63,010 nt of DNA from a virus (taxonomy: Duplodnaviria; Heunggongvirae; Uroviricota; Caudoviricetes). The position numbers were made by a program, and so were the translations under genes. Under the pieces are notes generated by a model that was given only the letters and a program-made list of their open reading frames with translations, did not search any database and was not told the origin of the DNA. The DNA lies in IMG/VR virus record IMGVR_UViG_3300028887_000002, positions 276,278 through 339,287 of that record. One strand, 5' to 3'. Shown one piece after another: positions 5,166 to 52,721 of the stretch; positions within the stretch are counted from its first letter, which is position 1, and every line of letters begins with the position of its first letter.

Positions 5166-5274
5166 GACGAATGAAGCAGCAAGACATTCGGAAAGATATT
5201 AAACATAAAACCAACGGAGGTAGTCCCTATCGGCTCTTGCTGCCCTTTGTCGAATGGATTTTACCTCCTTTTTT
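5166..5274 (+). ncRNA. Structured leader RNA upstream of large tnpB
   Basis: Complementary pairs 5176-5184/5235-5243 (9 bp), 5185-5190 with 5168-5173 or 5251-5256 (6 bp), 5216-5222/5262-5268 (7 bp) followed by T6. Confidence 0.5.
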
Positions 5275-14458: not shown

Positions 14459-15487
14459 TTATTCGGCCGTTGACAGGTCAATTCCGAGATATGGTACCAA
14501 TGCTTTATATTGGTTGAGCAATTCCTCATTCACCCATCTCTTTCTGTCCTTTGTGTTTCCTCTTTCGATAGTGTAAGACATCCATAAGGTCTTGTTACGA
14601 TGCAACGTGTGTGCTGACGGGTAGTCGGCGTTTAACTGTGCAAGAGCCTTCTTATATGCAAGTTCATCTTCCTCCAAGTCTTCAACCTTGTCCTCAACCT
14701 TCTTACCGAAACTATCTTTCAAAACCTTGAAGAGTTGATTGTTCATCACCTCAACATCACCTGTGGCCTTATCAACCAAGAAGTACAATTTCTTTACCAG
14801 TACTGGCGGTCTCTGACGGAATACGACATCCCCTTCTTCACTCTTGAAAATATCGCGTTCATCTTCTTCACCACGTTGATTAAATTTGCTTGTATCGGCA
14901 ACATGCGCGTTCTTTATCGGCATTATGCCAGCACCTCCATAGACATAACGTTTTTCACCAGCATTCTTGCCAGTCTTATAGAGACTGAACTTTCCTCGCC
15001 AAGTATCTTCTGCACCCTCAGCACCGAAACCATGTTCCTTGCGAAGTCTCTTCAACGCATCAGACTTTGTGGCTTCCAGTTCTGCGACACCCTGTGCGTT
15101 AAGCCAGTTCAATTGGAACACGCTATAGGAAACAATTGCGATGTCTGAATTGAAGTTGAACTTCATTGTCTTGGTCTTGCCATTCTGAAGGTAATCTTCC
15201 ATATCCCCACGGACATTTCCCAAATATTTCCTTTGCAACGGATATTCGTCACTATCGGTATAAGAGTTCACAAACTTTGCATAGTTGTCAGCATTGACAT
15301 AGCGCAAGCCTGTTGATATTTCCTCCGAGTTGATATATCCCATCGTGACAAAACGACCTCTCGGAATGGTTCCAAGATAGTCAATTAGGTTGTCACCCGT
15401 AATGTTCCTGTTCTGAAGTGCCTCTTCCAGTACACTTTTTACAATATCACTTATCTGCGATTCATCAAAATTATTTATCATGTTCAA
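14459..15487 (-). CDS. Hypothetical protein, possibly virion-associated
   Basis: 342 aa; N-terminal FDESQISDIVKSVLEE motif; CTATTTAT upstream. Confidence 0.8.
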   Translation of the reverse strand: MNMINNFDESQISDIVKSVLEEALQNRNITGDNLIDYLGTIPRGRFVTMGYINSEEISTGLRYVNADNYAKFVNSYTDSDEYPLQRKYLGNVRGDMEDYLQNGKTKTMKFNFNSDIAIVSYSVFQLNWLNAQGVAELEATKSDALKRLRKEHGFGAEGAEDTWRGKFSLYKTGKNAGEKRYVYGGAGIMPIKNAHVADTSKFNQRGEEDERDIFKSEEGDVVFRQRPPVLVKKLYFLVDKATGDVEVMNNQLFKVLKDSFGKKVEDKVEDLEEDELAYKKALAQLNADYPSAHTLHRNKTLWMSYTIERGNTKDRKRWVNEELLNQYKALVPYLGIDLSTAE

Positions 15488-18414: not shown

Positions 18415-18456
18415 CATTTATAAGCCCCATTAAGTTGATACGTTCAGAATGGGGTG
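18415..18456 (-). promoter_or_regulatory. Divergent copy of the phage promoter/stem-loop cassette
   Basis: Core AAGTTGATACGTTCA at 18432-18446 inside a CCCCATT/AATGGGG stem. Confidence 0.65.
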
Positions 18457-33712: not shown

Positions 33713-34075
33713 ATACTAATTCTTTTAAAGTTTCACAGCGCAAATATAAACCATGTTTTTGAGACCACCAAACTTTTTATCGTTTATTTTATATACGGTA
33801 GGGTGGCAGTTGATACCCCTTGCACACCACTACAATATAACCCCTCCGAAGTTGGTACGTTCATTTTTACACCCTCGTTTTAGGTTGATTTTCTTGTCAT
33901 TACCAACTTGTTGTAAACCAATGTGTTGGAAACACAAAATTTACAACGGACATATAATGAGAGAGTTACGAGGGGACGGACGGACGTCCGCAAGGGTTGC
34001 CATTGGAACAGTAAACGGTTGATTCTGAGGGACGTGGGCAACCCGCAGGGTGGACGGTCTGTTTAAAAAGTCGGT

Positions 34076-35330: not shown

Positions 35331-35348
35331 TGTACTCAAACGAGTACA
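35331..35348. repeat. 18-bp palindrome TGTACTCAAACGAGTACA, copy 1 of 9
   Basis: Exact copies at 35331, 35914, 38095, 39865, 42041, 43641, 45641, 48222 and 51745. Confidence 0.95.
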
Positions 35349-39748: not shown

Positions 39749-39888
39749 AATATTTCCCTTTCTTTTTTAAAACGTTTGACATTCACATAGGCATATATAA
39801 CACCCCAGAAACTGATACGTTCAAAATTGAAACGTCAGTTTCTTGGGGAGGTGCAGTTTTTTTTTGTACTCAAACGAGTACAAGGGGG

Positions 39889-40707
39889 CTATTCTTCGTA
39901 GAAATCGTAGAGACCGATGACCTTTCCTTCGGAGTTGATTACCTTGTCGTATATGAAGGCATAGGCGTTTCCGCTTTCAAGTTCGTAGCCTTTCAACGGG
40001 TGGTCGAAGTCAAGTTCGCCATTGTCCTTTTCGGTGTAGAAGTCTTCGTGCATATCGTAGTTCCAAATCTCACCGCTACAAGTCTTGGTATAGTCTCCGT
40101 CATAGTAGTTGTAGTACTGGCTGCAACCAGACTGGTGGAGTTCACAGAATTCGTATTCGTCTTCGGAATCATAGAATATGTTGTTTTCACAATCAATCAC
40201 GATGTCTTCAGGAGCAATGTTTTTGAGGTCGGGAAGCCACAAACCTTCCTTAACGGCACGGTTAATGACATTGAGGTCACGATTGTTGAAGTTCCCCTCA
40301 ATGAACTGCTCGAACTGTTCCCTTGCAAGGTCGTAGTCATAGTAGTCCTCGCAGGCTGGGTCGTCAATAAGAAGGACTGAGTTGCGTATCTCTGGCTTTG
40401 TGTTCGGCTCGTACATTTCAAGCCTATAGTAGCCACTCATTGCTTGATTCATACGGAAGGCAATGTGGTCTCTCTTGTAGTCTTCAAATTCAAGGTTGTA
40501 GTCGGCGATGTTCTCGTAGGTGTCAATAGTCTCCCCATTCTCATCGTCAATATGACATATCACCCTATAAGGCTTTCCATCGTGTTCGTGTACGAATTTT
40601 GATGCGTATTCGCAAGCATCGTTGATGTTTTCAAAGTCCTTTGATGTATAGACCTTGCTTTCATTGTCTGTCCAAACTTTGTACTTCATAATAATTTCTC
40701 CTTTCAA
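39889..40707 (-). CDS. Acidic hypothetical protein
   Basis: ORF; start probably 40689. Confidence 0.8.
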   Translation of the reverse strand: MKGEIIMKYKVWTDNESKVYTSKDFENINDACEYASKFVHEHDGKPYRVICHIDDENGETIDTYENIADYNLEFEDYKRDHIAFRMNQAMSGYYRLEMYEPNTKPEIRNSVLLIDDPACEDYYDYDLAREQFEQFIEGNFNNRDLNVINRAVKEGLWLPDLKNIAPEDIVIDCENNIFYDSEDEYEFCELHQSGCSQYYNYYDGDYTKTCSGEIWNYDMHEDFYTEKDNGELDFDHPLKGYELESGNAYAFIYDKVINSEGKVIGLYDFYEE

Positions 40708-40716
40708 ATAATAGTT

Positions 40717-41010
40717 TTATTCGCTTTTTGCGTATGTGAAAATCTTTAGAATTTCATTCTTGTTAATTCTCTTGAGCAATCCTACGATAGTGTATGTCTT
40801 TGGCACTACCGAATGCGGTTGCGACCAAACAAGAAAGTCCTTGCCGTCCAATCGTTCCTTTGCAAGGTGATAGCCGTACTGCCAATCGTGAAGGGGTTGT
40901 AGGACGGTGTATCTATCTTTGAGTTCGGTATTGCGCCATTGAATTATTTCTTCAACGCTCTTGTTGGCTTGTGCCTCAAACAATCTTATCGTTTCTTCCT
41001 TTGTTCTCAT
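40717..41010 (-). CDS. Hypothetical protein
   Basis: 97-aa ORF. Confidence 0.75.
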   Translation of the reverse strand: MRTKEETIRLFEAQANKSVEEIIQWRNTELKDRYTVLQPLHDWQYGYHLAKERLDGKDFLVWSQPHSVVPKTYTIVGLLKRINKNEILKIFTYAKSE

Positions 41011-41076
41011 AGAAAATTCAGTTTTAATGTTCTACACCACACTATATAAGTCCCATGAAGCTGGAACGTTCAAAAT

Positions 41077-41502
41077 CTAAAGTGTTTCGTAAAAGTCTTC
41101 AAAGGCGGTTATCACAAAATCCTCTCCGTTGTCTGGCTCGGTCAACGTCAAGAGTTCATCAATACCATCGCAATAGAAGAAAATCTCGCCGTCTTCGTCT
41201 TCTTTTATATCAGTTGAGAGTTTGATTGGAACGTCAGACGGCTCTCCGCAGTCTTTCCAAACTATTTCAACACAAGCATAAAGGATTGGTTGTTTGTTGC
41301 CGACAAGTTCGTCATACCTATCCCTCATCTGCTTCTTGATGAGGTTTTGCTTTGCATCGTTTGAGGTTGCCATTTCAACTGCTTTCATTGCCACTTCATA
41401 CACACGATAGTTCATTTGTGCGTATTGTACTGGGTCGGAAACGTTTGCACATTCCTTGATTGCGTCCAATACTATCTGCTGTCTCTGTTCTTCACTCATC
41501 AT
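41077..41502 (-). CDS. Hypothetical protein with module M2 (IKL.TD...EDGEIFFYCDGIDEL..LT.P.N.EDF)
   Basis: C-terminal module shared with 50408. Confidence 0.8.
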   Translation of the reverse strand: MMSEEQRQQIVLDAIKECANVSDPVQYAQMNYRVYEVAMKAVEMATSNDAKQNLIKKQMRDRYDELVGNKQPILYACVEIVWKDCGEPSDVPIKLSTDIKEDEDGEIFFYCDGIDELLTLTEPDNGEDFVITAFEDFYETL

Positions 41503-41586
41503 AATAATACCCTTTCTATTTTAAGTTTAACATTTTCAATTACATAATATTATATAAGTTCCCCGAAGCTGATACGTTCAAAGTTG

Positions 41587-41970
41587 TTAAAACCGATAAT
41601 ATGATTTTTTGTATTCGGTTGTTGGGGTATAACCCTCTCGCTTGTAGTTTTTGAATTCACTAACGATATATGTGAAATCAACACAACCTTTGGGGTAACG
41701 GTATTCTTCGACAAAAATGTAATAGCCGTTTTCGTTTAGGACATCAAAGGCTGTCCGCATTTCTTCTTCGCTTGGGTATGTTCCCTTTTTATAGTTTGTA
41801 AATTCCTTTTTTTCTAAATTAACACAATCAAAATTTGCGTAAACTTTTGAGGAAATAAAATGTCCGCCTTTCAAAAAAGCATCAACAACTGCTTGCACAA
41901 CTTCCTTGCGTATTGGCGTTTCCAATAACTTTTCCTCGTTCGGGTTTCTCTTTATTACAATTCCTTCCAT
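41587..41970 (-). CDS. Hypothetical protein
   Basis: 127-aa ORF. Confidence 0.75.
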   Translation of the reverse strand: MEGIVIKRNPNEEKLLETPIRKEVVQAVVDAFLKGGHFISSKVYANFDCVNLEKKEFTNYKKGTYPSEEEMRTAFDVLNENGYYIFVEEYRYPKGCVDFTYIVSEFKNYKREGYTPTTEYKKSYYRF

Positions 41971-42065
41971 AATATAAATATTTTTAAGTTACACCAATCT
42001 ATATAACCTCCCCGAAGCTGATACGTTCAGTTTCGGAGGTTGTACTCAAACGAGTACAAAACTTT

Positions 42066-42686
42066 TTATTCCTCAATTCCGAGCCTCTTCTTCAGCACCC
42101 TCACTAATGCAATATCAACATCACCAGAGTGCCAATTATGCGGGTCAGCAGTTTCCTTCACATCTTCAGCAACCTCATCGCATATACAATATGCGATTGC
42201 TTGGGCATCCGAATACTCCATGATGTTGGAAAGCCTCTTGATAATCATGTCATCAATACCATCAATGCAGTCATCGGTCAGTTCAATGGTAAAGTCTTGT
42301 GTCCTTCCGTCATCAAAGTCCAATTGTATTGAAACATACAAGTTGTCCACATTCCTTATGAAACCCCAACCGCTTCCTTCAAACAATATGTAGTTGTCCT
42401 CGTGGAGGCGTTCCTTGAGATAGTGGTCAGTAAAATGTTCACTACCCATATTGATGATGGCGAGTGTGTCATCGCATTTTATGAACTTGGTCTTGTTCGG
42501 CTCAAGGTAGCGTGTAATAAGCATTCCTCCGTTGGGGATGTTTACATTCATCATCACATCCTCAATGATGCCTTCTTCATACTTGTATTTCTCTCCCCAA
42601 GTCTGGGAAAACCATTTGGCGTCTACAGCAAATGAAGGGTCTGTAATTGCACAACCCTTTTCAAATCTAAATCTCTTTTCTTCCAT
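42066..42686 (-). CDS. Hypothetical protein
   Basis: 206-aa ORF. Confidence 0.8.
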   Translation of the reverse strand: MEEKRFRFEKGCAITDPSFAVDAKWFSQTWGEKYKYEEGIIEDVMMNVNIPNGGMLITRYLEPNKTKFIKCDDTLAIINMGSEHFTDHYLKERLHEDNYILFEGSGWGFIRNVDNLYVSIQLDFDDGRTQDFTIELTDDCIDGIDDMIIKRLSNIMEYSDAQAIAYCICDEVAEDVKETADPHNWHSGDVDIALVRVLKKRLGIEE

Positions 42687-42729
42687 AATAATTCCCTTTC
42701 TATTTTAAATCATTTAACATTAGTGCCTA

Positions 42730-43023
42730 TTAGTCTTCGGTTGGCACATAGACCATTTTCTCTCCGTTGTAGGGAGAAAACATTTCGTCCGTGCATTCAC
42801 AGAACTCTGTTTCAACAGCAAATAGTCCATAACCCTCTTGATAATATATTTCAAGTTCAATCTCCGATTCAGTCACATATCTCTCTGCTTCTTCGGGGGT
42901 CATTCCTTGCTCAACCAATTCATTGACCTTGTGGTTAAAAGCGATTGGGTATTTATCCTTTGAAAGTTTTACATTGCAAAGGTGTTCATAATTGTCCGAA
43001 TTGTTAATTACAGTCTTTACCAT
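42730..43023 (-). CDS. Paralog family C (PIAF..KV.ELVE.GM..E.AE...ELEIYYQ.G.GLFAVET)
   Basis: Highly similar to 48621. Confidence 0.8.
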   Translation of the reverse strand: MVKTVINNSDNYEHLCNVKLSKDKYPIAFNHKVNELVEQGMTPEEAERYVTESEIELEIYYQEGYGLFAVETEFCECTDEMFSPYNGEKMVYVPTED

Positions 43024-43113
43024 TTTTTATCTCCTATTTTTAAATGTTTAACATTCAATTTACATAAATCTATATAACCCCCATGAAGCTGAAACGTTCA
43101 TTTTCGGGGAGGT

Positions 43114-43554
43114 CTAATATACAAAATCTTTTGTTTTTATATATATTCTCTCACCGCGTTCATTAAAATCAGCCTCATATACATTTCCGTCCCAATCAGC
43201 ACTTATCGGGTAAAACCCTTGTTTCATCTCATCGTCAAATGAATTGATATAACATTGTTCACTTCCCCAACAATGAATATTTAACCCTTTGGCTGTTTCA
43301 ATGTTATCGGCTGTAGTTGGAAATCTCCCATCTTTTAAATTCAACTCAACACCCACATTAATAAATGCCGCCCGTCTTCCACCGATTTTATTCATTTTTT
43401 CGTTGAAAGTACCACCGAGATAGACATCAACACCACCCCAACCCTTCACTGTTCGTATGCAGTTGTCTAACATATCATACAATGTTCCAAAGGTCAGTTT
43501 TATTTCAAACCTATAAGGGTATCTACCTATTGTTATTGTCTTTTCCATAACCAT
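43114..43554 (-). CDS. Hypothetical protein
   Basis: 146-aa ORF. Confidence 0.75.
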   Translation of the reverse strand: MVMEKTITIGRYPYRFEIKLTFGTLYDMLDNCIRTVKGWGGVDVYLGGTFNEKMNKIGGRRAAFINVGVELNLKDGRFPTTADNIETAKGLNIHCWGSEQCYINSFDDEMKQGFYPISADWDGNVYEADFNERGERIYIKTKDFVY

Positions 43555-43661
43555 TTCATTTAAGTTTCACATAAATTTATATAAGTCCCACGAAGCTGAA
43601 ACGTTCATTTTGGGAAGGTGTTGTTTCATATAAATCTATATGTACTCAAACGAGTACACAT

Positions 43662-43696
43662 AAAAAAATGCCCACCGCCAAAAAGCAATGGGCATT
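43662..43696 (-). terminator. Intrinsic terminator after DUF932 gene
   Basis: AATGCCCA/TGGGCATT stem with A7 on +. Confidence 0.7.
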
Positions 43697-43731
43697 CGTA
43701 ACATTAAACAACTTAAATTATTATGGTAGAA

Positions 43732-44847
43732 TTAGCAAGCAAGTAGGTAGTCGTAACCCTTTTGAACTTTCCTTGCGACATCACCATCAAGGATTGAGTT
43801 GTACTTGTCTTCTGCGGTAGTCCACTTCTTGTTGTTGCCGTAGAAAGTCGTGAGTCCGTTCAGCAGCCACAACTTTGTGCCACGATGTTCGTGCTGACCG
43901 ATGCCGTTCTCAATGGCATTCATAAGGTCGGTGATTTGGTTGCGCTTGCGTGTGGAGATTTCCTCAACACCATATGGGTTGCCGTTGTTCTGTTCAATGA
44001 GTTTCAATTCGGCTGGTGTGCAGAAGATTTGTGTGACGAACTTCATTGCATCGCTCTCGCTGATAGTCTGCGACCTCAACTTTGTCATATCCTCAATGAA
44101 CTGAGTCTTGTATCTCTTGTGCATCTCAAGGACTGCAACTGCTCGTTGCACATTCTCTTGGCGTTCCCAATCCAATCGGTCACCGACATTCTTTGTGTGC
44201 TTGAAGACGAGTTTGTTCTTTGCGCCCCTTAATGCCATGTTGAGAGTGTTCTGGCAAATGACACGAATTGGTGTGAACAAGCATTCAACCGCACCGCTAC
44301 CATCGTGGGTATTTGTAAAGAGAAGGTAGTCCGAAATACCATCGTTGTCTCCCTCAATGCGTATGTTTTCGGGGAGTTTTGCAGTTATATACATTCTTGC
44401 ACCTCCCTTTAGGATGCCCGCAGTCTCAATGATTGGTCTTTGTTCGCCACCGATTGAGCCGCTTGTCATAAGGTCGATGAACTCAAAGGCTTTGGTGTTT
44501 TGTACGACACCATAGTCAGCACCGACAACTCCCAATGTCTTGTTTGAGTCCATGCGGACGGTTGCCTTGTGCGAATCTATAAGGTTATCTGCTGACACCT
44601 CAAGGTCAAATGCCTCGTTGTTTCTTATCTTGGTTGCGATTTCGTCACTTACACGGAGAAGGCTCTGCTTCTCAACATTGTAGTTAGCACCAACGGCTTC
44701 TACTGCCTCGTTGATTGTTACGGGAGTGCTGAACGATTTGCAACCTTGAATACCTTGCCAAGCAACTGGCTGTGCAGCCGATACCTTGATGGTTGCTTCG
44801 TTGTTGTTAATAACCTCTGCTGTGTTCAAATTAATAATTCTTGCCAT
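43732..44847 (-). CDS. DUF932 / LGT_TIGR03299 phage-plasmid protein
   Basis: VR.D....LGVVG.DY..VQN..AF.F; YLLF.N.HDGSG....FTPIRVICQNTLN.AL. Confidence 0.85.
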   Translation of the reverse strand: MARIINLNTAEVINNNEATIKVSAAQPVAWQGIQGCKSFSTPVTINEAVEAVGANYNVEKQSLLRVSDEIATKIRNNEAFDLEVSADNLIDSHKATVRMDSNKTLGVVGADYGVVQNTKAFEFIDLMTSGSIGGEQRPIIETAGILKGGARMYITAKLPENIRIEGDNDGISDYLLFTNTHDGSGAVECLFTPIRVICQNTLNMALRGAKNKLVFKHTKNVGDRLDWERQENVQRAVAVLEMHKRYKTQFIEDMTKLRSQTISESDAMKFVTQIFCTPAELKLIEQNNGNPYGVEEISTRKRNQITDLMNAIENGIGQHEHRGTKLWLLNGLTTFYGNNKKWTTAEDKYNSILDGDVARKVQKGYDYLLAC

Positions 44848-44943
44848 AATAAAATAAATTTAAGTTTAACATTTATTCAATTTTCATATTAGTTTATAAG
44901 TCCCCCGAAGCTGATACGTTCATTTTCGGGGAGGTGTTTCATA

Positions 44944-45117
44944 TTATCCTATTTCCTCTGCTTCATAATCAGCATCAAGATATTCATCGTTGGGATTTTC
45001 ACCCCATTCATCGTCATCATATTCTTGTGCGATTTCTATTGCTTCGTCCTCGTTTTCTGCTTCTACCTCAATATATAAGGTGCGTGGCGGATACATCTTT
45101 GTTACTTGATACAACAT
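44944..45117 (-). CDS. Small acidic protein (EVEAENEDEAIEIA, DpnD/PcfM-like motif)
   Basis: 57-aa ORF below the track cutoff, between two cassettes. Confidence 0.7.
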   Translation of the reverse strand: MLYQVTKMYPPRTLYIEVEAENEDEAIEIAQEYDDDEWGENPNDEYLDADYEAEEIG

Positions 45118-45198
45118 TTTCTTGTCCCTTTCTTTTTTAAGTTTAACATAAATCTATATAAGTTCCCCGAAGCTGGAACGTTCATTTTCGGGAGGGAC

Positions 45199-45549
45199 TT
45201 ATTCATCGTCCCTCTCATCTTCGTCTTCGTCCTCTTCTTCATCTTCACCATCCTCACACCACCACCATTCCATAATCTCGTCATCAGTGCTTTCAATGAT
45301 TATTGACCACCATTGGTCGCTGATTTCTTCGTGGTTGAAATCATCAGCAAAATCTATCATATCAGCCAAGCGAGAACCATCGTTCAAACAATATACCTTG
45401 TGGATTGGTACATTTTTATCTATCAATGTCTTGATAGGATTGCTCTCATACGACAATTCCAAAGGTGCAATACCAAATACATCACTATCATCTCTTGCGT
45501 TCACATCGTAGAACACCAAATACTTCTTTGTGTTTTTCTTTTCGTCCAT
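45199..45549 (-). CDS. Very acidic hypothetical protein
   Basis: 116 aa, D/E tail. Confidence 0.75.
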   Translation of the reverse strand: MDEKKNTKKYLVFYDVNARDDSDVFGIAPLELSYESNPIKTLIDKNVPIHKVYCLNDGSRLADMIDFADDFNHEEISDQWWSIIIESTDDEIMEWWWCEDGEDEEEDEDEDERDDE

Positions 45550-45713
45550 AATAATATCTCCTATTTTTAATTGTTTAATCTTTTCAATTTACATAAATCT
45601 ATATAACCCTCCCGAAGCTGAAACGTTCACTTTCGGGAGGTGTACTCAAACGAGTACAATATAAGGGGAAACGAACCCTTTAACAAGTCCGTCCCCTTTG
45701 GCTGTTGGTAAGG

Positions 45714-46361
45714 TTAAGCATAATCGCCCTCAATTATATCCTTTTCGATTTCCTTGTAGGTGCGACCATCGTATTGCAGTGCGGTGTAGATTTCCATTGC
45801 CACTCCGTAAAGTTCGGCGGCGCAAACTCTATCAACTTCATACTCATAGCAATCCTCTGTGCAGAGTTCAACATTGCCGTTTTTGTCAAGGTGTACATCA
45901 ATTACATCGGAGAATGCATTTGAAGCATATTCGGGGTGATTGCCACCATCGTAGGTGACTGCAACGCAAATGTCAAGCACTTCAAAGTTGATTGTGCCGT
46001 TTTCCTCACAAAGTTTCTTGAGGTAGTCAAGGCTTTCGTCCCACAACTTTCTACCCAAGTCCATGAAACGGTTTCCAGTTTCCACAAAGGCTGGCTTTCG
46101 CTTGATGTCAGCCTTGTATAACAATTTTCGGTATTCCTTCTTGTTAAGACCGCAGAATGATTTGAGGTGTGTGCAAGTTGTATTACTCAACACATTTTCA
46201 ACTGCCAGAGGAATGAGGTCGCCATTTGCGGTGCGCTCAATTATTGGCGTGTTGTAACTATACAACACCTCGCTACCATTTTCCTTGCGTTCAACAAGTG
46301 CTTTGCCATAGAACGACTTGCGACCATTGGTCGGCATTAATTCTCTTACATTGTTTTTCAT
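45714..46361 (-). CDS. Two-module protein with C-terminal module M1 (VTYDGG.HPE..SNAF..V.DVHLD..GNVEL)
   Basis: M1 shared with the N-terminus of 50408. Confidence 0.8.
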   Translation of the reverse strand: MKNNVRELMPTNGRKSFYGKALVERKENGSEVLYSYNTPIIERTANGDLIPLAVENVLSNTTCTHLKSFCGLNKKEYRKLLYKADIKRKPAFVETGNRFMDLGRKLWDESLDYLKKLCEENGTINFEVLDICVAVTYDGGNHPEYASNAFSDVIDVHLDKNGNVELCTEDCYEYEVDRVCAAELYGVAMEIYTALQYDGRTYKEIEKDIIEGDYA

Positions 46362-46471
46362 GTCTATTCCCTTTCTATTTTTAATTGTTTAATCTTTTCA
46401 ATTTACATAAATCTATATAACCCTCCCGAAGCTGAAACGTTCACTTTTGAGGAATAGGTTGTTTTATAATT

Positions 46472-46846
46472 TTATATTTCAAAATTATATTGGCTTTCGT
46501 ATGGTGCAAGCGTCATATGGATATATGCCTTTTGCGCACCCCATTCATTGAGGAATCTTTCAAGCCTATGTAAATAATATTCTTTGTTGTATGAATGATT
46601 CCAAGTTTGTGTTTCATCGTCATAAATATCATCATGACTGTCCCAACCATGCGAACCAGTACGATATAACACTTTGCCGTCTTTCAGTTCAATGTAGCAA
46701 GTGTAATATACGTGATGCGGTGCATCGCACTTAATGGTTTTTGTGTAACTGCGTTCAATCGCATGGGGGTAGGTCGCTTTGATGTATTCAACCACCTTGT
46801 GAAAGTTTGATTTCAATAGTTCCTCATACTTGCTAATGTTTTCCAT
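46472..46846 (-). CDS. Hypothetical protein
   Basis: 124-aa ORF. Confidence 0.75.
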   Translation of the reverse strand: MENISKYEELLKSNFHKVVEYIKATYPHAIERSYTKTIKCDAPHHVYYTCYIELKDGKVLYRTGSHGWDSHDDIYDDETQTWNHSYNKEYYLHRLERFLNEWGAQKAYIHMTLAPYESQYNFEI

Positions 46847-46947
46847 AATATTACCCTTTCTATTTTTTAAGTTATTTAATTATTTCGTTTCACATAAATC
46901 TATATAAGTTGATGAAAGCTGGAACGTTCAAAATCCATAGGTTGCTT

Positions 46948-46987
46948 AAAAAAAATCCCGACAAAATAAAATAATTTCATCGGGATT
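46948..46987 (-). terminator. Intrinsic terminator
   Basis: AATCCCGA/TCGGGATT stem with A8 on +. Confidence 0.65.
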
Positions 46988-47103
46988 GATAACAAAAAAA
47001 CAACTTAAATTATTATGGATAAAGTATTTACATTTTAAAAACCCCCAAAGGACATTAGGTAGTCCGATGGGGGAAAAAGTAATATAAATGAACGATTAGA
47101 GAA

Positions 47104-48129
47104 TTACCAAGTCTTGTATTTGCCGTTGTAGTTGCTTGTCGTACCTATCAGATGTGCAGTCTCGCTATTGTAGGGGATGCATTGTTCCCAATATACACCA
47201 CCACAAGTGACATATTGATAGCCATTATTATCTGTCGGTATATGGCTGAAAAAGTCGGCAATCCAAGTGCAACTTTCATCGTCCCTTACAAGTACCTTGT
47301 CAAAGGGCATGAGGTCGGTTTTTGCAAAGGTGTATTCCTTTTCCTTTGTGGAAATATCCTTGTCATTGTCAATGCTCTCAATGGTTGCAGCACCGAGACT
47401 TTCAAAAGTGTATACACCATTTTCAATTTCAATTATCTTCTCATATTCGCCATTTCTTGATAAAGGACCTATAGTATCTCCCACATTGTACTTGTGGCGT
47501 GCTTGATAGTATTGCTTTATTTCTTCATCGGTTGCAAGACGGAAATCGCCATTAATGTCAAGATATTCTATATCATCCTCCTTGTCATCGCTGGTAATGT
47601 ATTTACCATCTCTTATGTCGGTTATTTGGAATAGGATTAGTTTGTCAGAATTTAACCCATAACGCTTAATACTATCAATTGATATGAGATAGTCTCCGAC
47701 ATTGTATTTGGGGTACTCCACTTTTACCTCATTTATTATCTTGAGTTCCCAATCTTCTGCAAGGTGATATTCCTCGCTATAGTCAAGGTCATCAATCTTT
47801 TCATACTCGCCATCGCTACACTCGTATTCACCATCATCGGTTATACCTACTATGGCAAAGTTAACTTCTATGTTGTCGTTGGAGATAAGAACATCGCCAA
47901 CCTTGTATTTGGGTTGCGGTGTGGTAGGGTTGTCTTCTTCAACATCGCCGTCAAGAATTACTTCTTCTTCAGCATAGTCTGCCGTTGCTTCACCAAAGTC
48001 CCAATTAATGCAGTCAACATTTTCATATAGTTTGTTTTGTGCAATGTCAAGTGCTTCAAAGCTATTTTCAGCATCAACGAACATTATGCCGTTGTGTATC
48101 ATCGTACACGTCACAATAAACCTTTTCAT
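47104..48129 (-). CDS. Modular protein: EVEAE-like N-terminus, three KY(K/N)VGD repeats, PFDKVLVRD C-terminal module
   Basis: 341 aa with visible internal repeats. Confidence 0.8.
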   Translation of the reverse strand: MKRFIVTCTMIHNGIMFVDAENSFEALDIAQNKLYENVDCINWDFGEATADYAEEEVILDGDVEEDNPTTPQPKYKVGDVLISNDNIEVNFAIVGITDDGEYECSDGEYEKIDDLDYSEEYHLAEDWELKIINEVKVEYPKYNVGDYLISIDSIKRYGLNSDKLILFQITDIRDGKYITSDDKEDDIEYLDINGDFRLATDEEIKQYYQARHKYNVGDTIGPLSRNGEYEKIIEIENGVYTFESLGAATIESIDNDKDISTKEKEYTFAKTDLMPFDKVLVRDDESCTWIADFFSHIPTDNNGYQYVTCGGVYWEQCIPYNSETAHLIGTTSNYNGKYKTW

Positions 48130-48239
48130 CTCTATCCCTTTCTATTTTAATTAGTTTAACATTTTCAATTTACATCATATTATATAACCCTCCCGAAGCT
48201 GAAACGTTCATTTTCGGGAGGTGTACTCAAACGAGTACA

Positions 48240-48587
48240 TTAGAATTCGTCATCCAAATCGTCTCCGTAGTCAACATCGTAGTCAACAATCTCGTTGTAG
48301 CAGTCGTTGTTTTCGTGTACCTCAAATTCAATTGGGGTGTCAACGACAATCGTTGCAATATGATTTACGCCTACTCTCCGTTCAATAGTAGCCCATTCTT
48401 CGCTGTTGTCAGCAGAACGGATTTCATACTTGAAAAGACCTTCGGGGATATCGTTATCGGCAATGCGTTCATCAGTAAAGAACGCTTCAATCGTTGTTTC
48501 CTTGCAGTTTGCCTTGTAGGTGATTTCGCACTTGTGCAAATCGTGGTTGCAGACGAAATCGGGCATTTCAAAAAATAAGTTTCTCAT
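48240..48587 (-). CDS. LPD28-like (large polyvalent protein domain 28) protein
   Basis: AFFTDERI....IPEGLFKYEIR..D......TIE..V.VNH..TI. Confidence 0.6.
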   Translation of the reverse strand: MRNLFFEMPDFVCNHDLHKCEITYKANCKETTIEAFFTDERIADNDIPEGLFKYEIRSADNSEEWATIERRVGVNHIATIVVDTPIEFEVHENNDCYNEIVDYDVDYGDDLDDEF

Positions 48588-48620
48588 GGTATTTCCCTTT
48601 CTTTTTTTTTATTGTTATTA

Positions 48621-48899
48621 TTATTCAAGTCTTGCAACATCGCCATTGTAGGGAGACATAATTTCCTCGCAGTTCTCAACGATATCAGTTTCAACTGCAA
48701 AAAGTCCCCAACCTTGTTGATAGTAGATTTCAAGTTCAAATTCAGTCTTGGAAACAAACTTTTCTGCGTCCTCAACACTCATACCCTCTTCTACAAGTTC
48801 GTCAACCTTGTTTTGAAACGCAATCGGTGTCTTTTCCTTTGATAACTTGAAAGCACCGATGCTTTCATACTGGTTGTAATGATTTAATTTAAATTTCAT
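48621..48899 (-). CDS. Paralog family C protein
   Basis: Highly similar to 42730. Confidence 0.8.
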   Translation of the reverse strand: MKFKLNHYNQYESIGAFKLSKEKTPIAFQNKVDELVEEGMSVEDAEKFVSKTEFELEIYYQQGWGLFAVETDIVENCEEIMSPYNGDVARLE

Positions 48900-49002
48900 A
48901 GTTTTATTGTTTTATTGGTTATACTTCTTGTTTCGTTTCGCATAAATCTATATAAGTCCCCCGAAGCTGAAACGTTCATTTTCGGGGGACGTGATTTAAT
49001 GT

Positions 49003-49482
49003 TTATTCATCTTCTTTTTTTATTCTTCTGCAAGTTTCCTTTACTTCATCAAGGATTGGTGTTAGGTCGCTTGACACTTGTTGTGGTGTAAAGAAAACTT
49101 TGTCATCAACCCACAAGCAAATGCTCGGAGTCCATTCCTTTTCGTTAATATAAGCCTTATGGTATGATATGCCACCTATTTCATACGGCTTTCCGTCAGC
49201 AAGGACGATAACCCTATCGTAAAGGTCAAACTCGGTATCACCGATTTTTTCCAACATATTTGCAATCTCTTCCGCTTGTTTCTTTATTATGTCGGATAAA
49301 GCAGAATCAACAACAACCCCATTCATTTCGCATTCGGGGTCGCTACATTCCTCAAGATTGTCCACCAACTGCGAACCGCTGTCAGTTTGGTATGCAATCT
49401 CTATTGCTTCTGCCTCGTTTTTTGCGACAACATCAATATCACAATAGGTGTGATAAAATAATCTTACTGTGTACCTCTTCAT
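49003..49482 (-). CDS. Hypothetical protein with V.A.NE.EAIEIA N-terminal module
   Basis: 159-aa ORF. Confidence 0.75.
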   Translation of the reverse strand: MKRYTVRLFYHTYCDIDVVAKNEAEAIEIAYQTDSGSQLVDNLEECSDPECEMNGVVVDSALSDIIKKQAEEIANMLEKIGDTEFDLYDRVIVLADGKPYEIGGISYHKAYINEKEWTPSICLWVDDKVFFTPQQVSSDLTPILDEVKETCRRIKKEDE

Positions 49483-49558
49483 ACTAATTCTATTTTAATT
49501 GTTAAACATCTGTTTGCGTTTCACATAAATCTATCTAACCTTTCGGAAGCTGAAACGT

Positions 49559-49858
49559 TCAGTTTCCTATTGGGTTATGAAATGTGAAAACTAACTCGCT
49601 CGGACAACTACCATCATTCCTTACGAAATGTGCCGACCTCAACAAATCCTTGTGTTCTGCAACAAACTTGTCCAAGACCTTCTGCGGAAAGTGTCTCTTA
49701 TCGTTAGTTTTCAATTGGACTTCAATTGTCCTTGACCAAACGGTTATCGGACAACATTCCGTCACACTACCACTTGTCCAAGAGTTGTATTGGATATGTT
49801 TTCCGAATGCAACTTGAATGTCCCTGATAGTTTCGGTTATTCTTCTTTCTAATTCCAT
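49559..49858 (-). CDS. Hypothetical protein
   Basis: Start MELERR; TGA stop lies inside promoter core 49547-49561. Confidence 0.7.
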   Translation of the reverse strand: MELERRITETIRDIQVAFGKHIQYNSWTSGSVTECCPITVWSRTIEVQLKTNDKRHFPQKVLDKFVAEHKDLLRSAHFVRNDGSCPSELVFTFHNPIGN

Positions 49859-49999
49859 AAAATTGTTTTTAAGTTTCACATAAATCTATATAACCCCCAA
49901 AAAGCTGGAACGTTCATTTTCGGGAGGGGGAAAATAAAAAAAAATAGGGGCAACCGAATGAACGATTGCCCCATCATCAGTTAAACTATTAAAATATAG

Positions 50000-50398
50000 T
50001 TAAGGGAAATATGTTCTTACCATTTGGTTAAGCCGTTCCTTGTTGGTGTATCTTGAACCCTCAATGGTACTGGTCGGATTGGTTTCGTAGTAACCGCACC
50101 AATCAATAGTGTTTTTCAAGTCCTTAAAAACAGCCTTGAACATTATGCCGTTGGCTATTGAATGCCTTGCAGTTTTCAGCATAAGCATAAATAGGTCTGG
50201 CTTGGTCGTGCGCAATGAGAATGAAATTATATTGTCTTCATTTACCGCCAAATTATCTAACTTGACATATTTGGGAGTTAAGGTTGGCAATGCCTTTATT
50301 AAATTGTTTGCAGTCCCAACCTTGACAATTATTTTCATATTTAACCACTTTGCACCTCTTGGCACAAAGCCTTCAAGATTTATCTTTTTGCGTCCCAT
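50000..50398 (-). CDS. Basic hypothetical protein
   Basis: 132-aa ORF. Confidence 0.7.
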   Translation of the reverse strand: MGRKKINLEGFVPRGAKWLNMKIIVKVGTANNLIKALPTLTPKYVKLDNLAVNEDNIISFSLRTTKPDLFMLMLKTARHSIANGIMFKAVFKDLKNTIDWCGYYETNPTSTIEGSRYTNKERLNQMVRTYFP

Positions 50399-50407
50399 AA
50401 GCCAGCC

Positions 50408-51043
50408 TTAAAGTTTTTCACTAAAACTATCAAACCCGACTACCACAAAATCCTCCTTGTTGTAGGGATTCGTCAACTTCTTGAGTTCATCAATCCCATC
50501 GCAGTAGAAGGTGATTTCATCATCCTCGTCAGACACCACATCGGTATTCAACTTGATGGTGGCAAGGCTGAATTCGCTATCTTCCATATCATCGTCATTC
50601 CACCTAATGAATACATTGGCAAAAGTTGGCTCAAAGATATGCTTTGCCTTGTATTCGTCATATTCCTTCTGCAAGGTTTCACGCAACTTCTTGGGATAAT
50701 CAATGTGTTCCAAGTAACTATGGATGTGATAGGCAATGCTGTACAATTCACCGACATCACATATGCGGTAGGTTTCATAGTGTTCGTCTTCCTCAATTGC
50801 AAGTTCAACGTTACCTTCTTCGTCAAGGTGAACATCATACACTTGTGCAAAGGCATTGCTATTCCGTTCAGGATGTCCTCCGCCATCGTATGTGACAACA
50901 ACATAAAGGTCAGCATCTTCCAACGAGAACGTGCCGTTATTCTCCTCGCATACCTTCTTGAGATAAGCAATGGTTTCTCTCTTTAACGACTGCGAAATCA
51001 CTTCATATCCCTTTCCGATTTCCAAAAATCTCTCACTTTTCAT
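50408..51043 (-). CDS. Fusion of modules M1 and M2
   Basis: N-half like 45714 C-half; C-half like 41077 C-half. Confidence 0.8.
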   Translation of the reverse strand: MKSERFLEIGKGYEVISQSLKRETIAYLKKVCEENNGTFSLEDADLYVVVTYDGGGHPERNSNAFAQVYDVHLDEEGNVELAIEEDEHYETYRICDVGELYSIAYHIHSYLEHIDYPKKLRETLQKEYDEYKAKHIFEPTFANVFIRWNDDDMEDSEFSLATIKLNTDVVSDEDDEITFYCDGIDELKKLTNPYNKEDFVVVGFDSFSEKL

Positions 51044-51108
51044 AATCTTACTTTTTATTGGTTAAACGTTTCACATTATACTATATAACCCTCCCGAAGC
51101 TGAAACGT

Positions 51109-51648
51109 TCAAAATCCCCAAGTGCTTTTGCAAAAATTAATGTTCTTGGAATAGTGTGAATTCGTCCATAATATGTTGTGTACCTCTTCCTCACTTCTTT
51201 TGTCATCAAGGTTATAATTCCATTTATTATAATGCCTAATTCCATCTTCAGTCACCTCCTTGACTACCCAATGGTCGCACCCATCGTGGTGGTAGCCTTT
51301 AACGTGGAATTCGCCATAGCCGCCCTTGTTCACCTCATATATTTCAAAGTCCCAATAGTCATCGTGCGCCCAAGCCTTCCTTACACCATCATAGCCGTAA
51401 ACCAACTTACCGCCTTTAAACTTTCCATCCCATAGTCCGCACTCGCCAACGATAAGGTATGCCTTTCCGTCCTTGAAGAACGACTTCAATTCCTCTCTTA
51501 CGATATCCCAATCGCTATCGATTAGGTTGTCGATTTCACATTTTATTTCATCGTCAGTCGGGAATGCAATACCCTCTTCCCTTTTCAAGAGTTCAATTGC
51601 GTCATCCCTATAGGATTTCTTATCCCTTGTGCTAAAAATGTTTCTCAT
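51109..51648 (-). CDS. Hypothetical protein (GLWDG...H...HHDG)
   Basis: 179 aa; TGA stop lies inside promoter core 51097-51111. Confidence 0.8.
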   Translation of the reverse strand: MRNIFSTRDKKSYRDDAIELLKREEGIAFPTDDEIKCEIDNLIDSDWDIVREELKSFFKDGKAYLIVGECGLWDGKFKGGKLVYGYDGVRKAWAHDDYWDFEIYEVNKGGYGEFHVKGYHHDGCDHWVVKEVTEDGIRHYNKWNYNLDDKRSEEEVHNILWTNSHYSKNINFCKSTWGF

Positions 51649-51749
51649 ATGTCCTATATTTTATTGGTTTTTACATAAATCTATATAAGATATAAAAAGC
51701 TGAAACGTTCATTTTCGGGAGGTGTTGTTTCACATAAATCCATATGTAC

Positions 51750-51938
51750 TCAAACGAGTACATACTTGCGTTTTCCGTACTCTCCGCTTGCGTAGATGGT
51801 ACAATATGATATCTCCTTGAATTCGCCTCTCCTAATCATATCCTTGATTTCAAGGTCTCTTTCCATTGCACCATTAACTATTGTAGTATCCTTCATACCA
51901 TCTTTCCAAGTCCAATATAATGCGTATCTCATCGCCAT
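51750..51938 (-). CDS. Small hypothetical protein
   Basis: 62 aa; last codons and stop are encoded by the 18-bp palindrome. Confidence 0.65.
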   Translation of the reverse strand: MAMRYALYWTWKDGMKDTTIVNGAMERDLEIKDMIRRGEFKEISYCTIYASGEYGKRKYVLV

Positions 51939-51991
51939 ATAGTTTTTAAAAGCCGTCCGAGAAAATCCCCAGACGGCTTCGGTTGGTTAGG

Positions 51992-52516
51992 TTATCTTTC
52001 GTAGTAGGTGCGACTGCCTTGCCTTACGGAGATGATGTTCTCCATATTCACCATACGGAAATCAACTTGGTCGCTTCCGTGCAGTCCATAGGCGGCTTGT
52101 CTCTTATTTTCACTTTTCTTTACCAAGAAGGTTTTGATTTCCTCTACCTCGCTCGGTGTTGCGGCACGACCATCAAGCAGCCAAATAGTGCGCTCGGTTG
52201 TGTCCTTTTCAAGTGTAAAGGTAAGGTACATATCTCCACTTGATTTCTTTTCAATGAAGAATTTATTTACCCTATTTGCCCAGTTTGGTAATGGCGCTGG
52301 TTCGTATGTTTCTGCAATGCCTTGTCGATTGCCGTAGTTCGTCACACAATTGCCGTAGCGACATCCAAAGTAAGCATTGGTATACCAAGTGTGCTTCTGC
52401 ACTCTATTTAAAAATGGATTACCCGTCTTGTTCATTGATGGTGTTGTCAATGACTCAATTACTAAACCCTTACTTCCAATTGTGTAGGTGCTGAATAAAT
52501 TTTCCGATACTTTCAT
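51992..52516 (-). CDS. Hypothetical phage protein (MNKTGNPF..RV.K)
   Basis: 174 aa, first gene of the cassette array. Confidence 0.8.
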   Translation of the reverse strand: MKVSENLFSTYTIGSKGLVIESLTTPSMNKTGNPFLNRVQKHTWYTNAYFGCRYGNCVTNYGNRQGIAETYEPAPLPNWANRVNKFFIEKKSSGDMYLTFTLEKDTTERTIWLLDGRAATPSEVEEIKTFLVKKSENKRQAAYGLHGSDQVDFRMVNMENIISVRQGSRTYYER

Positions 52517-52721
52517 TTTACTAATATTTTAAATTGTTTTAACTTTCAAATTACATTATATTATATAACCTTGCAGAAGCTGAAACGTTCAAAATTGGTT
52601 GGTTGCATATAAATCTATTTGAAAAATATCCATCCCACAATAGAACGATTTTGACAATAGTTTTAGACGATATTATTTTTTGCTAATAGTTTTCCCACGC
52701 ACCGCATAAAAGTCCCAGAAT

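Follow-up and report, generated by a model that had tools for sequence, protein, structure and literature searches.

The final 63 kb of a virus record that is complete at 339,287 bp, carries direct terminal repeats and has 39% G+C (IMG/VR IMGVR_UViG_3300028887_000002, positions 276278-339287; 63,010 nt, hereafter the window) were analysed with respect to an array of short repeated elements that head small genes on the minus strand at 39776-52602. The complete genome is referred to as G000. The virus is a tailed phage (Caudoviricetes) with a T4 gp23-type major capsid protein (E 8e-60), and bovine gut and rumen sequencing runs were the main carriers of its sequence, with no RNA run among those listed. 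The array comprises 22 small open reading frames (ORFs) in 18 units, each headed by one copy of the element; 19 of the 22 ORFs had no family match, and the only families matched were DUF932, DUF8033 and LPD28. The first-pass annotation had described 18 promoter/stem-loop-headed cassettes here, and the same number was obtained by counting: 18 co-oriented copies of the core TGAACGTTTCAGC (at most 2 mismatches) were located at 39811-52591, which corresponds to 18 modules in 12.8 kb. The element is termed the class-2 module, and its copies are named by core position (P-numbers; all those in the window lie on the minus strand). The array region is hyperplastic and rich in ORFans and belongs to a gp23-type phage genome, the setting asked of the PeSL (Promoter-early Stem-Loop) and PmSL elements considered below.

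The module is approximately 60 nt long and consists, in order, of a 5' arm, TGAACGTWTCAGC, a 3' arm, GTTATATAG, a stretch of 5-6 variable nucleotides (N5-6), TGTRAA, a leader, a Shine-Dalgarno (SD) site and ATG. Its fuller consensus, ccTCCCGAAAA, TGAACGTWTCAGC, TTCGGGAGG, GTTATATAG, N5-6 and TGTRAA, is longer than the version given at first. The upstream box was determined as GAACGTWTYAGC (box form GAACGTTTCAGC), and in many modules a GTTWAAC leader and an AAAGGA/AGGAG ribosome site precede the ATG. The 18-nt distance reported earlier between TGAACG and TATATA was correct, with the conservation reaching further, past GTTATATAG and N5-6 to TGTRAA. Each of the 18 array copies, like the other strong copies in the genome, faces an ORF that starts about 50-150 nt past the start of the core. 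In P49561 (49514-49572) and P51111 (51064-51122; no stem) the TGA of the core doubles exactly as the stop codon of the ORFs at 49559-49879 and 51109-51648, respectively, as the first-pass annotation had noticed.

When up to 3 mismatches were allowed, 41 core matches were found in the window compared with 18.9 ± 4.3 in shuffled sequences, none of which reached 41. Counting only cores followed at a distance of 7-11 nt by a TTATATA-like box gave about 24 class-2 copies in the 339-kb genome. The copies outside the window are situated at genome positions 12351 (-), 252677 (+), 264283 (+) and 273990 (+). The outliers reported at 18432 and 32677 proved to be real, at 18434-18446 (P18446, 18399-18457) and 32679-32691 (P32691, 32644-32702), and were joined by a third copy at 33851-33863 (P33863, 33816-33874), which stands in tandem with a host-type promoter ahead of a GmrSD_N-like gene.

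Three promoter-like classes were distinguished in the genome. Class 1 is the host Bacteroidota-type TTTG-N18-22-TAnnTTTG(C), with 41 matches at most 200 nt upstream of ORFs in G000; a class-1 -7 box lies ahead of the operon of primase, SbcC-like and sigma genes. Class 2 is the array motif and is distinct from the class-1 promoters of the same genome. Class 3, aCTATTTAT(a/t)a, is found 15-45 nt ahead of the starts of large genes and heads about 24 genes, including those for the tail sheath, a head-protease protein and a large TnpB-like protein; because of the tail sheath and head-protease genes it is regarded as late. Examples of class 3 in the window are at 5171 and in the upstream regions of 14459-15487. 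SD-like sites were detected in 52% of class-2, 26% of class-1 and 0% of class-3 leaders, which groups class 2 with the pre-late genes. With SD sites in half of the class-2 leaders and in none of the late leaders, translation initiation in this Bacteroidota phage seems to be signalled in a class-dependent way.

Outside the array, class 2 heads a Cas-lambda gene (genome position 273990, plus strand, just ahead of the window) and a gene for a ClpX without the zinc domain (252677, plus strand), whose module is the CGAACGTTTTAGC allele typical of the related rumen contig L015 described below. The Cas-lambda module has a perfect 10-bp stem, CCTCTCCGAA/TTCGGAGAGG. The first module of the array, P52591 (52544-52602; no stem), follows 250 nt of non-coding DNA, and P49916 (49869-49927; partial stem; terminator at 49972-49947), P46930 (46883-46941; no stem; two terminators) and P43607 (43560-43618; weak stem) follow canonical terminators. 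The placement of these four modules would leave their genes otherwise without a promoter.

In the genome collections searched, the class-2 motif did not exceed the chance level. A degenerate pattern resulted in 21 single matches in 596 Gb from 185,579 prokaryote species genomes, where about 35 were estimated by chance. In IMG/VR the narrow exact motif had 0 matches, and a wider pattern had 9 single matches, which is the chance level. No match to the array was obtained by megablast against 50,697 phage records, a search for related loci with a 116-aa cassette protein found nothing, and the literature search for the motif returned unrelated sequences only. A scan for E. coli-type promoters showed no enrichment (46 compared with 39.6 expected). 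The distant relative G001 (351 kb; L010, L034-L035), in which homologs of 135 of the 424 G000 ORFs were found (E <= 1e-5), has classes 1 and 3 and no class 2, and its region syntenic to the array uses host-type promoters. The earlier claim of a phage-specific promoter unlike the host TAnnTTTG box is therefore supported indirectly, by the 41 distinct host-type promoters and the chance-level counts in hosts.

The DUF932 gene (43732-44847, minus strand), headed by P44922 (44875-44933), is the best-conserved cassette and was used as the anchor for finding relatives. L015, a 26-kb rumen contig with a 92% identical DUF932 protein, carries 19 modules between the same flanking genes. Thirteen array genes are collinear between G000 and L015, with 39-94% protein identity, and the flanks are syntenic, but gene D (50000-50398) and the block H-I (48587-47104) are translocated in L015. 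At least 6 lineage-specific ORFs were counted in G000 and at least 10 in L015. Paralogs occur within the array as well (K, C and S; P and G; Q and Q'). Several blocks of nucleotide homology between G000 and L015 begin at most 13 nt from the core and end in the leader of the next module.

In three further contigs, L039, L040 and L041, the encoded DUF932 protein matches that of L015 at 100% identity. L041 was identical to L015 over its 3.3 kb, and L039 and L040 differed from L015 by single cassettes. In L039, the upstream flank of P3123 matches the flank upstream of P8216 in L015 (94 nt preceding the arm, with 1 mismatch), and the part downstream is 100% identical to P8834 of L015; the switch falls inside the core, and a 170-aa gene was removed or added. 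The same switch pattern was observed at P764 and P2286. In total, 8 of 9 junction intervals touched a module, compared with 2.0 expected by chance (P = 2e-5). A further gene order, 46361-gene, 50398-gene, 45549-gene and 52516-gene, was detected in assembled DNA contigs of the independent run X3. Joints in run X2 mostly ended in modules, a count that short repeat alignments may inflate. Runs X3 and X4 are duplicate entries of one dataset, and the source sample is probably X1. The array had been proposed to be a gene-shuffling platform, to be checked by the cassette order in relatives. Order and content differed in five close-relative assemblies with crossovers inside the module, and instead of a fixed order single-cassette gains, losses and moves were found.

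Gene K (45714-46361) is the cassette missing from L039. P46443 (46396-46454) and P45629 (45582-45640) share a run of 73 identical bases, so that gene K is flanked by perfect direct repeats. The sequence AATTA-CGAACGTTTTAGC occurs in 16 of the 19 L015 modules compared with 0 of the 18 array modules of G000. The N and P proteins are 92-93% identical and their promoters 60-66%, and promoters of paralogs in the own genome are closer (67-83%); module alleles appear to undergo concerted evolution within a genome. Homologous recombination between modules would be the simplest mechanism of exchange. No match to tyrosine (PF00589) or serine (PF00239) recombinases was obtained in the complete genome; the phage encodes an SbcC-like nuclease subunit, which supplies part of a general recombination machinery. 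Homologous recombination between repeated elements was proposed also for PeSLs (PMC2839356, PMC4122927).

In the probable source run, Logan contigs end at or next to modules, at window positions 41942-41971, 45525-45915, 46404-46418 and 51082-51110. The gene K region is partly covered by low-depth variant contigs (about 4x compared with about 90x) that are about 12% divergent, which suggests a second strain in the same sample.

The repeat is probably a promoter-leader module that is portable and belongs to a phage-specific, pre-late class; it would head recombining units of one or two genes in a gp23-type huge Bacteroidota phage. Each unit would bring its own start signal, consisting of the box GAACGTWTYAGC, the -10-like TTATATA 18 nt past TGAACG and TGTRAA at the expected transcription start, and many units would bring along a leader with a ribosome site; a unit equipped in this way should therefore stay expressed wherever it is inserted. 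The runs of 15-73 identical bases in the modules would serve as a substrate for the general recombination of the phage. Crossovers between modules could then delete, insert, move or duplicate single units and homogenise the modules of one genome. The inverted repeat that flanks the upstream box would be an ancestral part of the module, dispensable for the promoter as well as for recombination, and the copies that have kept it probably provide the upstream message with a 3' hairpin.

As the reader of class 2, a phage-encoded factor working with the host core RNA polymerase (RNAP) is moderately favoured. One sigma70-family gene was found in G000 (226 aa; genome 193361-194041, L009:1369-2049); the protein has regions 1.2, 2 and 4, and its nearest models are RpoH, RpoS and RpoD. 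That this sigma is the phage factor in question is possible but doubtful. The sigma gene stands directly after the primase and SbcC-like genes and a hairpin-plus-T-run terminator, and upstream of it GTTATAT occurs as in the class-2 -10 box, without the core. The host sigma A alone is an improbable reader, and the remaining probability falls to something else. It is likewise improbable that a lineage-specific factor or polymerase, neither sigma A nor the phage sigma, reads GAACGTWTYAGC best in an extruded loop of the flanking inverted repeat, with the same extrusion turning the module into a recombination hot spot; if true, a single element acting through its structure would account both for the promoter takeover of the hyperplastic region and for the mobility of the cassettes.

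Several observations weigh against the promoter-module interpretation or parts of it. A 47%-identical ortholog of the phage sigma is present in G001, a genome without class 2, and the sigma is at least as likely to serve the late class. As the specific reader of class 2 the phage sigma was accordingly weakened as a candidate, the late motif being present in G001 and class 2 absent. Profile searches of the phage detected no Rpb1 domain (including domain 2), no MotA and no ECF-type region 4. No T7-type RNAP was found either, with a family that matched no control genome and so shows little. The proposal of the first-pass annotation to find the cognate sigma or RNAP elsewhere in the genome consequently led only to this single sigma70 gene and to null RNAP searches. 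Furthermore, the upstream box is a quasi-palindrome, TGAA-CGT-TTCA, and might act not as a -35 element but as an operator or an RNA element. Some homology blocks end at gene starts or inside genes, outside the modules, which indicates that other recombination routes also act.

The stem was analysed separately. It encloses the upstream box, with the spacer serving as the 3' arm. The strongest array stems were determined for P45629 (perfect 9-bp stem CCTCCCGAA/TTCGGGAGG, -22 kcal/mol), P48210 (48163-48221; the same perfect 9-bp stem, with a palindrome immediately upstream) and P48978 (48931-48989; perfect 10-bp stem GTCCCCCGAA/TTCGGGGGAC, -23 kcal/mol), which fold at -20 to -23 kcal/mol with z of -4 to -5. 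The fold of the best copies combines the arms with an inner TGAA/TTCA helix. The stem CCCCATT/AATGGGG of P18446 folds to -9 kcal/mol only (z -0.5). A stem of -13 kcal/mol or better was present in about 10 of 23 copies in G000 and in 6 of 19 in L015; the earlier remark that several copies have lost the stem thus holds for more than half of them.

The inverted repeat is real at the consensus level, as register 0 was better than all slid registers. In column-wise covariation tests, 72.8% of the cells were paired in 24 TGAACG-type copies compared with 72.7% in shuffles, and 76.0% compared with 76.7% in 27 CGAACG-type copies, with zero double changes. Covariation of the stem was rejected: the arm-swap test gave P values of 0.006 (all copies), 0.06 (array) and 0.12 (L015), and both column-wise tests were null. 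Two promoter alleles hold the stem in different registers, CCTCCCGAA/TTCGGGAGG and AACCTCACCG/CGGTGGGGTT; this difference amounts to one or two compensated events and gives no statistical signal. Of the claim that the stem sequence varies with pairing kept, the quoted stems were found to exist, but compensatory change was limited to a few examples and was not general, the covariation being equal to that of the shuffled controls.

A terminator-like function of the stem, as initially suggested, is doubtful: a T-run is missing from it, and separate terminators of the canonical hairpin-plus-T-run kind are situated upstream of four modules, P49916, P46930, P45629 and P43607. Strong stems are found mostly at modules without a preceding canonical terminator, namely P48978, P45184 (45137-45195; -13.7 kcal/mol, beginning right past the upstream stop codon), P44922 (-15.3 kcal/mol), P43100 (43053-43111; interrupted, -13.9 kcal/mol) and P42029 (41982-42040; -15 kcal/mol; ortholog of P14605 in L015). 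Judging by these few cases, the stem is probably an optional 3' hairpin for the upstream message. In the hyperplastic region of G001, a few host-type promoters have a 9-10-bp hairpin, TTTGGTAGCG...CGCTACCTTTG, in the spacer between -33 and -7 (for example at genome positions 324377 and 325802). As a clade-wide promoter design the spacer hairpin was discarded, being present in 7% of the 118 host-type promoters of G001 (1% in shuffles) and in 0 of those of G000.

The same observations were used to weigh other explanations of the modules. They might be ordinary early promoters for the host housekeeping sigma A, with the odd sequence being a strong-promoter variant. The distant relatives do have host-type promoters in the same region, and the TTTC and TAGATTTA of the module loosely recall TTTG and TAnnTTTG. 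However, the invariant GAACGT, GGTTATATA and TGT differ from the host elements, whereas the TAGATTTA stretch that recalls them varies among copies and is replaced with TAATATGA, TAGTATAA or TAGTGTGG. In G000 itself, 41 well-formed promoters of the host type lie ahead of ORFs, the motif was above chance in no host genome, and this explanation is considered unlikely. A similarly low probability is given to the hairpin and core being an element for RNA processing, stability or regulator binding in a long polycistronic transcript, with no promoter involved. The full hairpin is possible only in read-through RNA, the best copies reach the folding energies given above, stems tend to persist where the upstream canonical terminator is missing, and the core is a quasi-palindrome. 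Yet more than half of the copies lack the stem and still keep the core, TTATATA and TGT at fixed spacing; the covariation is null, some copies come after canonical terminators and one opens the array, and coding sequence takes the place of the 5' arm in two copies.

The shuffling itself might be site-specific rather than homologous if the modules were sites of a dedicated structure-specific recombinase, similar to integron attC sites, a possibility raised also for PeSLs by their authors (PMC2839356). The inverted repeat around a conserved core and the crossovers in or beside the core would agree with such sites. In contrast, the complete genome has no tyrosine or serine recombinase, the crossover zones are the stretches of longest shared identity, some of them in the leader, the stems are decayed in most copies, and the SbcC-like subunit belongs to general recombination machinery. 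Dedicated recombinase sites are accordingly very unlikely, and homologous exchange between promoter-leader modules is preferred.

Among known systems, the closest are the PeSL cassettes of the T4-like phages RB49/phi1, PST/T4 and nt-1/KVP40 (Arbiol et al. 2010, PMC2839356; Comeau et al. 2014, PMC4122927). Both are composites of a repeated intergenic stem-loop, promoter, ribosome site and start codon, clustered in a hyperplastic ORFan region of a phage with a gp23-type capsid. Both show single-ORF indels, replacements and displacements among close relatives, with crossovers inside the element, and degraded half elements nearby ('1/2 PeSLs' near indels in T4-like phages). Unlike in PeSLs, the promoter here deviates from the consensus of the host, for which TTTG/TAnnTTTG would be expected; the stem, which has no T-run, surrounds the upstream box and does not precede the promoter; and the density of 18 modules in 12.8 kb is higher. 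Terminator activity and mini-circles were demonstrated experimentally for PeSLs (PMC2839356, PMC4122927), whereas the present array is known from its sequence. The array is PeSL-like, its variant architecture being the nested hairpin together with the non-host promoter, and represents no new kind of system.

The PmSL elements of Vibrio phage nt-1 have the T4 Mot box (TGCTT), which is read by MotA/AsiA (PMC4122927). They share with the array the cassette logic on a phage-specific, non-early promoter class with the upstream box at a fixed distance before the -10 element, but the box sequence is unrelated and no MotA homolog was found here. The class-2 motif fits the looser PmSL idea of a phage-specific promoter class. 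The promoters of the N4 virion RNAP are hairpins with 5-7-bp stems and 3-nt loops, centred about 11 nt before the start. Conserved promoter bases in a short hairpin are common to both, but the loop of the array modules measures 15 nt, more than half of the copies lack the stem, and no N4-type or other phage RNAP was detected in the profile searches described above. The N4 analogy drawn in the first-pass annotation is weak, since the centre of the hairpin lies about 35 nt upstream of the presumed start. From integrons the array differs by the missing dedicated tyrosine or serine recombinase.

PeSL-type shuffling, defined in T4-like phages of Proteobacteria, is thereby extended to an uncultured 339-kb rumen Bacteroidota phage, where natural strains allowed the crossover points to be narrowed to the promoter core. 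A host-type promoter is no requirement for the repeated linker. The three classes (host-type, class 2 and late) provide a working promoter map for a huge-phage lineage from sequence data. The class-2-headed genes, including those for Cas-lambda, ClpX and DUF932/LPD28-type entry proteins, can be flagged as a putatively co-regulated and rapidly exchanged set.

The remaining modules of the array differ in the state of their surroundings. P51711 (51664-51722) has kept the 5' arm and lost the 3' arm, and has a palindrome and a half-promoter upstream; a palindrome and a half-promoter lie also upstream of P43607. In P41580 (41533-41591; no stem) the upstream stop codon is 6 nt ahead of the core. P41072 (41025-41083; no stem) is the ortholog of P15872 in L015, and P39823 (39776-39834), the last in the array, has a degenerate second core closely upstream. 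Half-promoters, TATAGATTTATATGAAAC-like -10/start regions without a core, were observed directly upstream of the 5' arm of several modules, at window positions 43634-43618, 51741-51725 and 52620-52605 and at about 2935, 7345, 8805 and 12475 in L015.

A leader element, (A)TGTTTAAC / GTTAAAC, was present 20-35 nt before the start codons in 38% of the class-2 and 11% of the class-1 leaders and absent from the late leaders; it was enriched also in G001. Examples are at window positions 48160-48150 and genome position 262190. The 16-nt sequence GTACTCGTTTGAGTAC occurs in nine invariant minus-strand copies, all in the orientation of transcription, compared with 0.01 expected (window positions 35332, 35915, 38096, 39866, 42042, 43642, 45642, 48223 and 51746). 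Six of them lie 0-43 nt upstream of a class-2 module, past a stop codon or terminator, and L015 has the element too. It may form a 3' hairpin in the RNA or serve as a protein site; the copy at 43664-43635 grows into a 13-pair hairpin, followed by TTTATAT.

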